Sequence record: OZ346228.1
Strand: one strand, 5' to 3'
Length of the DNA: 64,000 nucleotides
Source: a phage
Notes under the pieces: generated by a model
Database searches by the model: none
What the model saw: the letters and a program-made list of their open reading frames with translations, nothing else
What the model was told of the DNA's origin: nothing
Made by a program: the position numbers and the translations under genes
Shown here: positions 3,134 through 55,675 of the stretch, piece by piece
How the letters are laid out: the number at the start of each line of letters is the position of its first letter
How positions within the stretch are numbered: the first letter of the stretch is position 1

Positions 3134-4174
3134 ATGTCAAAACCTAGTTTTCCATTAGAGATTTGGGCAGAGGAGGATCAGGTTCTGCCTAACACCCACA
3201 GACAGAACAGGCTACGCCCGATCGATGATTTGTGGAGAAAAGGTTGGGATCTTGGTCAAAAGCCATCCTGTGAAGAACTTAACTATATTTTCAATATGCT
3301 CGGAACTTGGGCAAAATACATTGCTGACGAGCAGATCCCCGCTCAAGAAGGCCGTTATCTGGTACGTGATAATAACTTGAGCGATCTTTTGAACATCCCT
3401 GTTGCCCGTAGAAACCTTGGGATTATCACTAAGGAAGAGGCAGACGCCAGGTATGTAAAAGTTACAGGTGATACAATGACAGGCCCCTTGGGGTTGCAAC
3501 GTATCAACTTTAAAGCTGCCGAGACAGATAAGGCTTGGATAGAGACAACTATTGGCCCAGATAAGACAACTCTCGACTTTGGGTTAAGTGATAATACCGG
3601 GTCGTTTGATGATGGTGGTACATCTACAGTGGATGCGTTTCGTTGGAGATTCCAGCCAACTCAGCCGGATATTAATCCAGAGTTCACTTTGATGTACCTT
3701 AACGCGATCACGGCTAATCGTGCGCTGTTGAAAGTGGTAGGCAATGTTGAAGTTGTCGATAACATGAGGTGCAATAACCTTACTATCAGCAATACAGCAA
3801 CATTCACCAACTGTAATGTGGCTAGTCAGTTGACGGCTGGGTCAGTATATGTTAATGGTGGTGCAAGTTGTGACAGTATGGTTGTAAGAAGCCAGCACTG
3901 TGTTGTCGGTAACAGAAATGTGGTGCGCTCCGTGAATGGAGTGACGGCTAACGGTAACGGTGATGTAACGATCACTATCCCGCAGACAGGTGTGCAAGAC
4001 ATCAGAATCGGTGCAAGACTTGTGGACGGCGTTTCTGAATCTCCAATCCGCAACGGCTACGTTGTCACAGGCTGGCATTTCGGTGACAAAAAAGAGATGC
4101 GTGGTTCAACCTACTGGGCAGGACCCTTACAAAAACTTGTAAATGGTCAATGGATCACTGTTAATTATGCATAG
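3134..4174 (+). CDS. tail fibre protein (paralog 1)
   Basis: 346 aa; GDTMTG-type fibre motif (VKVTGDTMTGPLGL); N- and C-termini conserved with ORF 5184-6230 (C-terminal QKLVNGQWITVNYA); followed by a Tfa-like chaperone. Confidence 0.7.
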   Translation: MSKPSFPLEIWAEEDQVLPNTHRQNRLRPIDDLWRKGWDLGQKPSCEELNYIFNMLGTWAKYIADEQIPAQEGRYLVRDNNLSDLLNIPVARRNLGIITKEEADARYVKVTGDTMTGPLGLQRINFKAAETDKAWIETTIGPDKTTLDFGLSDNTGSFDDGGTSTVDAFRWRFQPTQPDINPEFTLMYLNAITANRALLKVVGNVEVVDNMRCNNLTISNTATFTNCNVASQLTAGSVYVNGGASCDSMVVRSQHCVVGNRNVVRSVNGVTANGNGDVTITIPQTGVQDIRIGARLVDGVSESPIRNGYVVTGWHFGDKKEMRGSTYWAGPLQKLVNGQWITVNYA

Positions 4175-52692: not shown

Positions 52693-52938
52693 ATGAAAAG
52701 CAATAAAGGTTATAACGGTTACAAAAACAAAACTCATTGGAATGTAAGCCTTTGGATTAATAACGATGAGTCATTGTACCGGTTGGCCCAAGGATTTATT
52801 AACGCTAATGCTAATCGTAATGATGCGGCGCGGGATATGATGCTTTTTCTGGAGCTAACCGGACAAGATAAGACCCCGGACGGCTTCAAGTACAGCACTA
52901 CGGCGATCCGTGCCGCGATGGTTGGAATGAAACACTAA
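52693..52938 (+). CDS. hypothetical small protein
   Basis: 81 aa; AAGAAGAGG RBS; last + strand gene before the large non-coding region. Confidence 0.45.
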   Translation: MKSNKGYNGYKNKTHWNVSLWINNDESLYRLAQGFINANANRNDAARDMMLFLELTGQDKTPDGFKYSTTAIRAAMVGMKH

Positions 52939-53256
52939 AAGCACATAGCCGCCAGATCTCAGAATTTACGTACGCTCACCAGTCTATAGCCTGCTAAGTA
53001 TTTATTCCAACCATAGAATAACGGAATAGTCAATACCTGCATAAAATAATTATTCGTGTAAACTGCATAACATAAATCGGCTAGGATGTCAACATTTTTC
53101 GTAAACAGCTCGAAATTATAACGGTGAGTTATAATAAACAGAGAAATCTTTAGTCGTCTAATGTTTACTGTACATTACTATACTGACTGGAATCATTAGA
53201 TGACTAAGAGAAAGATAAGAAATCATTAACAATGCAATTGTTTTATTCGTAACAAT

Positions 53257-53692
53257 AAGGCAACTATGCAAACGGATGGCATGGCGCGACGGAGTCGCGA
53301 CATAATATAAAAGCAGTAACCATCACCCCCGTGATAGTTTGTCTGCAAACTATTAATCAGATCATAGTTGCCTTGTATTTAGTTAATCATGACATAACAA
53401 GCAAGGCAACTATAGATCTGCTAATAGTTGCCCTGCTTTTATATTATGTCATAGATTATTAGCCTGTTAATTGTTAGTCAGTCAAATCAACAACGTTATC
53501 ATTTCAGTCTTTATTGTTGTTGATCGTTATTGTTATCATGCAAACGAATGGCATGGCTTATCATTTTTGAGTAAACAATCTATACGTGAACAGTGAGGCA
53601 TGCAATAGTAAGGGCGGGAATAATGAGAGTGTAAACTGTCAGGCATGTCAATTATATCAATCGTGTCAGTTATGTCACCATTATGTCAGACA
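53257..53692. repeat. iteron and hairpin cluster within the large non-coding region
   Basis: GGCAACTAT motif four times (two forming a 12-bp stem hairpin at ~53364-53413); direct repeat ATGCAAACGRATGGCATGGC at ~53266 and ~53538; five spaced TGTCA repeats at ~53636-53692. Confidence 0.5.
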
Positions 53693-54215
53693 AGTTTTTC
53701 TCCTCTTTGTCAAGTGCTGCATGAAAAATTTACAATCTTGTATGGTAGCATTTTTGCGGCCCTGTTTACATTCAGTATTGTATGTATAATCCTTGTTGTG
53801 TGGGCGTTTAGACGTCTAGACGGTCAGAAGTCTGCAGGTTAATATCTAATCTATCGGCTGCTAACTATATCCCACACAAATAGTAAGAAATATAATTGTT
53901 ATGTGCGTAAACAGTAACTCATGTTATCAATCCCTGTATGTATCGCCAGTGGTGCGCATAATGGGTATTATGTTAAATTGCCCGTAATGATAATGGTTCT
54001 CACAATGATAGGTATTCTCATTCCCCCACACAAAATAGATTGCAAATGTTGTGCCACTATGTGAACGGCCTCACCTATTAATTTGCCTCACTGCCTCGAT
54101 ATTTGAGAATTATCATAAGAATGAGAAGTATTCCCATTTCGTCCGCCTGGCAGCACTCCAGTCGCTACGGCTCAGAACAGGGCAGAATTGTGTCCATTCA
54201 GATATTTCTGTCTGG

Positions 54216-55423
54216 CTCTTCAGGTCTGTGTGGGAAAAGTCCACCTCTCTGGCGGGGCATGGGGTCATGACGGGAAAATTGCAGGTCAATTAAAAAATTT
54301 ACGTGGTGTATGAAGCGCTCTTCAGGTAAGGCATGTATTATGGGATGAAACCCTCTTCAGGCAATGATATTTGTGGGTGTGATATTTGCTGGAAAGCCAG
54401 ATATGACGGGACTCCCGGCGGGGCAGGGGTAGTACAGACAGGGGAAATATGGAGGATGTGGTTAGGTGAATTGATCAGACAGGTAGAGTATGGAATATGT
54501 TACAGGTATGTTAAATAGGGCGGCTGAATATCTGTAGGATTTGTGTGTAAAATCAAAGACTTAAGTGGTGTTGTGGTATTTTCTATAAATAATTCAAGTT
54601 TAATAGGTAATATTTGTCTCTATTCGCTTTGTGTGGTAAACAGATTCAGATGAGATTGGTTTACAAGCGTATACATAATATACAAATTAAAGATACAAGA
54701 AACCCCCCTCCCCCTTCGGCTACCATTCACCTTTTCCTCTGACTGGTACTTAAACACTTATTCAGACTCTTCAGGTTATCACCCATATATCATATGGCAG
54801 TGACTGGTGTCCTCCGGCCCCTCTTTCGTCACCCGTCCGCTTCGCCATGCTAATGCCATAGCCAATGGTTCGGTTGTTCACCCTGTTCACTCAGGTGTAT
54901 CTCCATACCCCTTCAAAACGAAGAGAACAGAAAACCCGAATTACTCGGTAAAAGAAAAGAGAAGAACTTAATTTTATCAGGATAGGCAAGAATGTCAAGG
55001 CATGACTGCTCACTAAACAAGCAAACAGTCATGTGTGGGAGGTAAGTGATTGTGGTGGTAGGAAATTTAGTTGAAAGATGTGTTATAGGTGCTTCCAGCA
55101 CTTTAGCCGGGCAGCTAATTGTGTGTCAGTCCAGCGGTTCATCCTCTACTTCACTGAAATCAATGTTCATGGTCTCTTCCCAACCATCGATCTCAGCACA
55201 AGAGTGGAGTTCTTTAGGGTTTACTCCTAAAGCCTCAGCAACAGAGTCTATATTTAACACCTCTGGCAGGTATGATTCATCAAATTCAAGGTAAATCAGG
55301 CCACGAGTGTTGTCAGCTCCACCAAATATTTCTATCTTCATAAAATCTCCTCTGGAAATGAGAGTGTGAACAGGGTTTTATACGTCCCAATGCACAGGAA
55401 TTATGCACGTTTTCCTCTTCAGG
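54216..55423 (+). repeat. five same-orientation copies of the 9-mer CTCTTCAGG
   Basis: Copies at about 54216, 54318, 54353, 54767 and 55415, all on the + strand, in a region without convincing ORFs. Confidence 0.5.
55126..55341 (-). CDS. hypothetical acidic protein
   Basis: 71 aa; first minus-strand gene after the non-coding region. Confidence 0.4.
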   Translation of the reverse strand: MKIEIFGGADNTRGLIYLEFDESYLPEVLNIDSVAEALGVNPKELHSCAEIDGWEETMNIDFSEVEDEPLD

Positions 55424-55462
55424 CCATGCTTTAGCATGAGGAACCTGTGTGGGCTCGGTGCT

Positions 55463-55675
55463 TCATAGTCTACCACCTCTGAACTCTTCGTGCTCAGGCA
55501 TAATAGAGAACCAGATATCTACGATGTCCTCCCACGTCAGGTCATCAGCCTCAGGATCTGTCTGGGACGAAGATGAAGAGTCCTCAGAATCTAAGTTTTC
55601 CTCTTTAACTGGCTCATCCAAGGGACATATGGTCACTCCTTCGGATGTCTCTTCAGATGCATGTGTGTTGATCAT
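55463..55675 (-). CDS. hypothetical acidic protein
   Basis: 70 aa, Ser/Glu/Asp-rich. Confidence 0.4.
   Translation of the reverse strand: MINTHASEETSEGVTICPLDEPVKEENLDSEDSSSSSQTDPEADDLTWEDIVDIWFSIMPEHEEFRGGRL

Follow-up and report, generated by a model that had tools for sequence, protein, structure and literature searches.

The gene-free interval of a Vequintavirus genome as the probable genome-end region, with a short direct terminal repeat

Short exact direct terminal repeats (DTRs) are found at T7-type genome ends, as in T7 (160 bp), T3, SP6, phiKMV and N4 (~ 400-500 bp), and to our knowledge the recognition, cutting and regeneration of ends with short terminal repeats have been well studied only in T7-like podoviruses. 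The T7 sequence contains short imperfect repeat arrays (SRL and SRR) immediately inside its terminal repeat. The locus considered here is a gene-free interval of 2.2 kb (positions 52939-55125) in a stretch of 64,000 nucleotides of phage DNA (record OZ346228.1; hereafter the window), which is assigned to the genus Vequintavirus, i.e. the rV5-like myoviruses of ~ 136 kb. Very probably, this interval is the genome-end region of a Vequintavirus, which, the assembly being circularly permuted, is seen in the form of a collapsed concatemer junction.

Parts of this locus are already on record, the gap since 2013 and the repeat since 2019 and in GenBank annotations. The rV5 paper reported no open reading frames (ORFs) at 104013-106618 and drew the stretch as a 'non-coding' box (Kropinski et al. 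2013, PMC3606486); it is the homologue of the interval and lies, unannotated, between ORF163 and ORF164. For EdH4 and HdK5, "short terminal redundancies of 458 bp" were given by Korf et al. (2019, PMC6563267), who set the ends from abrupt read ends in the assemblies and used them to linearise genomes such as that of EdH4, while the Gotham record (MT682716) has a repeat_region annotated at 1-459 and 136567-137025. All of these concern the same locus as in the window, with 92-98% identity, identical cut sites and the same repeat length; the gene upstream of the gap (52693-52938), on the other hand, is not that of rV5. In the accessible portions of the published Vequintavirus sources, no link between the repeat and the non-coding box was found described.

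The terminal repeat and the probable ends of the genome

The 2.7 kb around the interval matched 273 phage records, of which the full-length ones are Escherichia phages of the genus Vequintavirus (90-95% identity), and the non-coding interval itself was matched in 122 records, over at least 80% of its length in 98 of them. Outside Vequintavirus, no DNA similarity of the region was found by blastn. Comparisons were made in an alignment of 15 phages (14 relatives and the window), and the spacing of the end motifs was measured in 17 genomes; the compared vequintaviruses are 90-97% identical overall.

Three independent records from different submitters (EdH4, Gotham and ECP2309) have identical fixed ends, with an exact repeat of 459 bp at both of them. 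This repeat maps to 53689-54147 of the window (97.6% identity between the EdH4 repeat and window 54147-53690), where it is present in a single copy, as would result from the circular closure of an assembly of a terminally redundant genome. The record of EdH4 ends at the equivalent of window 53689, those of bov10K2 and bov22_2 start at 54147, and either the one or the other position is a break point in the records of ECP2309, ECP2303, Pr121LW and Gotham. When read in virion orientation (window - strand), the genome would start with 5'-GGCGGACGAAATGGG (complement of 54147 downward) and end with ...GAGAAAAACTTGTC-3' (complement of 53689). The two terminal motifs are 459-460 bp apart in all 17 genomes, and the boundary sequences are invariant in the 15 aligned phages, reading in virion sense (with a stroke for the boundary) ...GGAG(Y)GCTGCC(A)/GGCGGACG... 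at the left end and ...AAAACTTGTC/TGACA... at the right end. Nearly all indels, in contrast to these constant boundaries and length, are located just outside of them (53454-53690 and 54173-54283).

The first-pass annotation of this DNA, made from the sequence alone, had named the physical genome terminus in a permuted assembly and a packaging (pac/cos) site among four candidate roles, none of which it preferred, and for the terminus, with its related packaging or cut site, the position to which the exact repeat of the relatives maps is strong support. Both the occurrence of the same sequence at the two ends, as in three close relatives (with one collapsed copy in the window), and fixed end positions that are common to the relatives are as in the exact-DTR class, and a terminal repeat is thus to be expected, from sequence comparison, at the ends of this isolate as well. 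Headful (pac) packaging with circular permutation was rejected, since identical fixed ends are shared by records from different submitters.

The claim that the interval is free of genes was confirmed. Among its 21 ORFs (34-80 aa), none is gene-like across the 14 relatives, since each is either disrupted by frameshifts or stops or has an excess of non-synonymous over synonymous changes; the flanking gene at 55126-55341 (71 aa) is intact in all 14, with 60 synonymous versus 26 non-synonymous changes. As every ORF fails this comparative test, a protein-coding reading of the gap is ruled out. In the records of PMBT16 and MiataMamis the gap is filled with 12-14 tiny 'hypothetical protein' coding sequences (30-120 aa), which look like over-annotation and receive no support from the same test. 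No transfer RNA genes were found in the region. Transcription does converge on the interval, as had been noticed before, which in virion terms means that the last genes of both arms read outward, toward the DNA ends, and the annotation of EdH4 shows an arm layout identical to that deduced for the window.

According to this reading, the virion DNA would be linear and run from the complement of 54147 to that of 53689, the 459 bp that these positions delimit being present at both ends, and in concatemers one copy of the DTR would join the right arm to the left arm. The right arm would consist of the - strand genes from 55126 upward followed by a 978-bp flank (55125-54148), and the left arm of a 750-bp flank (53688-52939) followed by + strand genes. 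A sequence-specific terminase could then cut ...GCTGCCA/GGCGGAC... and ...CTTGTC/TGACA... in a T7-type mode of packaging, while the flanks may keep the outward transcription of both arms off the junction.

The likeness to T7-type ends lies in a repeat that has a fixed sequence, measures a few hundred bp and is present at both virion ends (one copy at the concatemer junction), in sequence-specific cut sites and in the combination of a conserved repeat with labile short-repeat arrays in non-coding DNA on both arms. The differences are considerable as well. This is a 136-kb myovirus without a phage RNA polymerase, its end genes are transcribed outward, as opposed to inward transcription starting at left-end early promoters, and its flanks (0.75 and 0.98 kb) are much longer.

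Iterons, palindrome and boxes in the flanks

The right-end cut adjoins five TGACA iterons on the - strand (53637-53688; TGTCA on the + strand), which form a candidate recognition or positioning site for the terminase. The five copies seen at first pass are indeed there (53637, 53646, 53664, 53673 and 53684, i.e. 9-18 nt from start to start and all in 52 nt), and five copies were found in no other 55-nt stretch of the window, nor in any of 2000 random placements. The first TGACA stands directly after the cut (...CTTGTC/TGACA...) in every one of the 17 genomes, and RTGTCAG/ACAAGTTTT is invariant; the further GACAY-like units, which are about one helical turn or more apart, vary in number, spacing and flanks, with 1-5 exact TGACA copies within 130 nt among the genomes. 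Between the iterons and the palindrome described below is a hypervariable, indel-rich spacer (53451-53636) with a variable number of GTRAAYAGTAA-type units, where most of the indels occur and conservation is 0.31-0.80, compared to 0.92-0.98 in the neighbouring blocks. At the other end of the repeat, the right-arm side of the left-end cut (54148-54294) starts with 12 invariant nucleotides, TGGCAGCACTCC (in virion orientation ...GGAGTGCTGCCA/GGCGGAC), followed by a variable stretch, and on this side a unit containing GGAG(Y)GCTGCC is present in one or two copies, the second in some phages only.

In Shigella phage CM1 (MK962749.1 104103-107644), the equivalent of window ~ 53625-54147 is a 523-bp unit in two tandem copies, made up of the 459-bp repeat and the first 64 nt of the iteron array. 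This is either a longer terminal repeat (cut after the iterons) that was assembled twice, or a real duplication, or a mis-assembly.

Further into the left arm, the most conspicuous element is a compound palindrome of 152 nt (53299-53450) with a perfect outer stem of 18 bp (53299-53316 / 53433-53450), the sole strongly structured stretch of the region relative to shuffled sequence (z = -9.2 and -8.7 for the two strands as RNA and -11.6 as DNA). Its long inner stem is made of copies of GGCAACTAT and ATAGTTGCC, next to a 9-bp hairpin at 53318-53339. All repeats listed in the first-pass annotation are present, each well in excess of what chance would give, and several of them turn out to belong to, or to surround, this palindrome. 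Of the four copies of GGCAACTAT (53259 +, 53364 -, 53405 + and 53424 -; nowhere else in the 64 kb), copies 2-4 form its arms, including the 12-bp stem pair 53364-53375 / 53402-53413, and the 20-nt direct repeat, whose copies at 53266 and 53538 are 272 bp apart and 95% identical, brackets it. Copy 1 of this repeat, ATGCAAACGRATGGCATGGC (53266-53285, + strand; copy 2 at 53538-53557), adjoins a small hairpin, CGCGAC-GGA-GTCGCG (53285-53299). The remainder of the left flank, up to the last rightward gene (stop at 52938), is an AT-rich spacer (52939-53265) that includes the first GGCAACTAT (53259-53267), with a conservation of 0.88-0.98, no ORF and fold z-scores near 0.

The stems of the palindrome are invariant in 14 of the 15 phages, and rV5 and LL12 carry a 33-nt insertion exactly in its apical loop. 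It is kept in 118 of ~ 122 records and is absent from FV3 (JQ031132.1), which lacks ~ 250 bp (window 53286-53537) comprising the whole palindrome and three of the four GGCAACTAT copies. At the FV3 junction, copy 1 of the 20-nt repeat is fused to the sequence that follows copy 2, so that FV3 is apparently a natural deletion mutant that arose by recombination between the two copies. The palindrome is therefore nearly universal but not essential, and may best be regarded as a conserved, dispensable accessory element, acting as a barrier, as a hairpin in end replication or processing, or as an RNA.

On the right arm, the conservation of the non-coding flank (54295-55125) ranges from 89 to 100% among blocks of 50 nt, with 96-100% in most of 54295-54444 and of 54695-55125, and the flank has neither a conserved ORF nor any excess folding. 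An enriched word on this side is CTCTTCAGG, for which five copies in one orientation had been claimed within the interval; four are located there (54216, 54318, 54353 and 54767), whereas the fifth (55415-55423) is outside of it, in the intergenic gap between two leftward genes. With the only other copy (27690, - strand, antisense inside a gene) this makes six in the window versus ~ 0.5 expected in 64 kb, a number reached by none of 100 shuffles. Read on the - strand, the five copies near the repeat are CCTGAAGAG boxes (four at 54216-54775), which share one orientation and begin beyond the left-end cut, at distances of 77-1276 nt from it. All 15 phages have copies 1, 3 and 4 unchanged and 12 of them copy 2, and a TGTGTGGG-type box is found near copies 1, 3 and 5. 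TGTGTGGG / CCCACACA and GTAAACAG are enriched as well, with six and four copies, respectively. A role of CCTGAAGAG as the -35 element of a special promoter class was considered, as by inspection a -10-like hexamer is located 9-12 nt downstream of 3-4 of the five copies, and was left as speculative.

The same flank contains a predicted sigma-70-like promoter on the - strand (54971-54998; TTGACA, 16 nt, TAAAAT with TG; 11 of 12 consensus matches) that points toward the DTR, of which the -35 hexamer is kept in 14 and the -10 hexamer in all 15 of the phages. The 8-bp inverted repeat noticed near 55000, CATGACTG / CAGTCATG, is present as described (55001 / 55026), just upstream of this promoter, and a weak hairpin with a T-run (54948-54926) is found downstream of it. 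Two other promoter-like sites were dropped, one (53678-53651) being built from the iterons and specific to the window, the other (53707-53736) having its -10 hexamer, TACAAT, in only 4 of the 15 phages.

No intrinsic (bidirectional) terminator was found between the convergent operons: only two weak terminator-like sites turned up in the region, both on the - strand, and shuffled sequence gave as many. The rV5 authors, too, saw no terminator in the span from gene 163 to gene 164 (Kropinski et al. 2013, PMC3606486). At ~ 54200-54700 the - strand, in which the upstream genes are read, is rich in C and poor in G (GC skew of +0.23 to +0.57 on the + strand), and at ~ 54380-54680 it is almost free of structure (-3 to -10 kcal/mol per 120 nt). 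This zone before the DTR is a possible Rho-dependent termination zone, and such an untranslated, unstructured C-rich stretch would be suited to block right-arm transcription via Rho, whereas on the left arm the 152-nt palindrome might fulfil that role. The TGACA iterons, and perhaps the CCTGAAGAG boxes on the opposite side, could serve as binding or positioning sites for packaging proteins.

Several points weigh against the interpretation as a genome-end region with terminase sites. The rV5 genome was called circularly permuted (PMC3606486), and in one announcement that relied on PhageTerm, rV5-like phages are given as 'circular permutated'; these statements rest on assembly or on default software output, and revised versions of records once called permuted now begin at the boundary mapped here. 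Furthermore, the ends of this particular phage are deduced from relatives that are 92-98% identical in this region. Between phages the iteron array differs widely, some having no more than one exact TGACA, which makes a sequence-specific requirement for the array doubtful, and iterons and boxes are assigned to the terminase by position and analogy only. Lastly, the palindrome cannot be essential for packaging or replication, given that FV3 is viable in its absence.

Corresponding ends in other genera of Vequintavirinae

For Klebsiella phage KPP-1 (Mydovirus) a DTR of 514 bp has been published, based on two-fold coverage and PhageTerm, and classed as T7-type. This DTR is found at the corresponding convergent, gene-poor spot, and its ends, GTGCTA/GACGGACA and CTTGACAAGGAGAGAGAATTGTGT, are close to those of Vequintavirus even though the flanks do not align. 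In PVP-SE1 (Seunavirus, GU070616.1) the end motifs GTGCTA/GACGGACA and CTTGACAGGGAGGGAAAATTGTGT are ~ 510 bp apart in an unannotated stretch (locus 583 to ~ 1097), which predicts a terminal repeat of ~ 510 bp at ~ 117218-117732 of the record. The word CCTGAAGWG (complement of CTCTTCAGG) is present in 3 copies in KPP-1 and in 4 in PVP-SE1, in the same orientation and on the right-arm side of the termini (predicted, in the case of PVP-SE1), so that these boxes are co-oriented and on the same side in all three genera.

A closed palindrome is found in these genera too. That of KPP-1 (117138-117343) has a perfect outer stem of 21 bp and z = -10 and starts 309 bp inside the repeat; it has homologues in PVP-SE1, GAP31, 4MG, Mydo and Erwinia phage pEp_SNUABM_01, with 73-80% identity in Seunavirus and Henunavirus and a higher identity within Mydovirus. 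In an alignment of 12 sequences of this KPP-1-type element, 98% of the cells are paired and 18 of the 61 pairs are changed on both sides, a count of compensatory changes that was reached by none of 500 shuffles (slid controls gave 1-6). Insertions occur only in apical loops, and G-U pairs (23 cells) outnumber C-A (3 cells), an excess that weakly favours folding of the strand running inward from the repeat. The inner stem and linker are invariant (GGTGTTATCGTGGC ... GCCACGATAACGCGAACGA). The loop of the last hairpin is the exact site of a 54-55-nt insertion in Proteus phage Mydo and Klebsiella phage NDO71, which forms a hairpin in its own right, and in Mydo a 'hypothetical protein' coding sequence is annotated across the element.

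The element of Mydovirus, Seunavirus and Henunavirus agrees with the palindrome of the window in its location (240-400 bp inside the right DTR boundary, in the non-coding flank of the left arm) and in its architecture, with a perfect outer stem of 18-21 bp that encloses hairpins and a long stem (z of about -10), but differs from it in showing no detectable sequence similarity. An nhmmer search with the profile of the 12 sequences gave no match at 53299-53450, and homology is therefore unproven, the likeness being positional and architectural only.

It is conceivable, if tentative, that the boxes, end motifs and palindrome together constitute a cis-acting module of the whole subfamily, which would direct the recognition of the ends and the duplication or replication of the repeat. 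Such a module would comprise G[GA]CGGAC at the left end, CTTGACA with a purine run and TTGT at the right end, the CCTGAAGWG boxes on the right-arm side of the repeat and a closed, covarying palindrome a few hundred bp inside the left arm, and it might act e.g. through hairpin-primed synthesis or as a single-strand priming signal. If so, the large myoviruses of the Vequintavirinae would have their own variant of T7-like end processing.

Other readings of the interval and remaining observations

A replication origin in the region, or in part of it, would be compatible with a genome terminus at the same place, and would imply that an initiator binds to the iterons, that the AT-rich DNA is opened, and that a priming structure or transcript comes from the palindrome or the promoter. 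The composition (35% GC over 53001-54000) and the clustering of short repeats are in line with this, although the repeats have cores of 5-9 nt (5 nt in the iterons) with irregular spacing and variable number, as opposed to phased repeats of 17-22 bp. Also in favour, the sequence downstream of the conserved sigma-70-like promoter is rich in pyrimidines, and the palindrome is very stable; its analogue in the other genera contains invariant boxes (e.g. GCCACGATAACGCGAACGA, which KPP-1 has a second time 86 nt downstream), and the one-strand folding suggested by the predominance of G-U over C-A would fit a single-strand priming signal. However, it is precisely this most origin-like element that FV3 lacks. 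The GC-skew turn in the region coincides with the switch of transcription direction, as the rV5 authors noted (PMC3606486), and no initiator gene was identified nearby. One DnaA-like and one IHF-like match, and no cluster of DnaA boxes, speak against a host DnaA/IHF-dependent origin, and an origin in this region is on the whole rather unlikely.

Non-coding RNA is a further reading, in the form of a structured RNA from the 152-nt palindrome and of a - strand transcript from the promoter at 54998-54971. High conservation in the absence of ORFs and the retention of the promoter (in 14-15 of the 15 phages) would agree with it. The first-pass suggestion of a structured RNA nevertheless finds no support for most of the region. 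Searches against Rfam 15 yielded nothing at gathering score for the window as a whole, nothing at E up to 1 for 52800-55500 and nothing for the homologous regions of four relatives, and nowhere outside the palindrome is folding stronger than in shuffled sequence (z = -1.0 for the stretch downstream of the promoter). For the palindrome (z of about -9) an RNA is conceivable, the more so with the 18 compensatory pairs and 98% paired cells of the Mydovirus/Seunavirus/Henunavirus element. As the palindrome folds equally well on both strands and as DNA, however, covariation cannot separate an RNA from a DNA hairpin, and the perfect Watson-Crick pairing of the outer stems in nearly all genomes, with two-sided changes only, fits a palindrome at the DNA level better. 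Immediately upstream of the palindrome, no promoter shared by the relatives was detected, the site at 53678-53651 being window-specific. All in all, functional RNA from this interval is quite improbable.

Least of all is it to be expected that the flanks, the DTR and cut bases aside, are mere spacer with a conservation that reflects close relatedness: the 90-97% overall identity of the relatives does limit the weight of 95-100% conservation, indels and copy-number changes are frequent beside the cuts and a 250-bp deletion is viable in FV3, but genera with non-aligning flanks share gene-free flanks of 0.3-1 kb with co-oriented CCTGAAGWG boxes on the right-arm side, a closed palindrome recurs 240-400 bp inside their other boundary and has undergone compensatory evolution, and 54695-55125 (0.97-1.00) is more conserved than the adjacent gene (0.92-0.98).

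The genome-end reading is not surprising in kind, and the region is mainly of use for annotation and as an experimental starting point. More than 100 rV5-like genomes are public, most of them deposited with an arbitrary permutation and with the gap unannotated or filled with spurious small ORFs, and the two end motifs allow the true genome ends to be placed by sequence alone. The boxes, the cut-abutting iterons and the palindrome (with its natural deletion in FV3) are targets for work on the recognition, cutting and regeneration of ends in large myoviruses with short terminal repeats. As far as the accessible text of the published Vequintavirus sources goes, no description was found of the iterons starting at invariant cuts, of the CCTGAAGAG boxes or of the palindrome, nor, in the portions of the literature covered, of the FV3 deletion or of the end motifs, boxes and covarying palindrome in other genera. 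Since rV5-like phages are widely used in biocontrol and therapy, their mode of packaging also bears on the risk of transduction.

Some minor observations concern the surroundings of the interval and the records themselves. Homology with other vequintaviruses starts at window 52945, and the last rightward gene (52693-52938, + strand, 81 aa) has no counterpart at the same position in rV5, EdH4 and other relatives; the gene adjoining the genome-end region has therefore been exchanged. The 71-aa gene on the other side is genus-specific, with no relatives found outside Vequintavirus. About 19-24 unannotated 'Campylobacter phage' records (MG065635-MG065690, host Campylobacter jejuni) carry the region of Escherichia coli vequintaviruses with 92-95% identity, and look like mislabelled or contaminating rV5-like phages. 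Finally, the right-arm flank contains a C-run, CCCCCCTCCCCC (window 54703-54716), and similar C-runs are located 95-135 nt before the left end in KPP-1 (locus 3672-3686) and PVP-SE1 (locus ~ 488-510), where they form part of small hairpins and, with respect to the terminal repeat, occupy the other strand.

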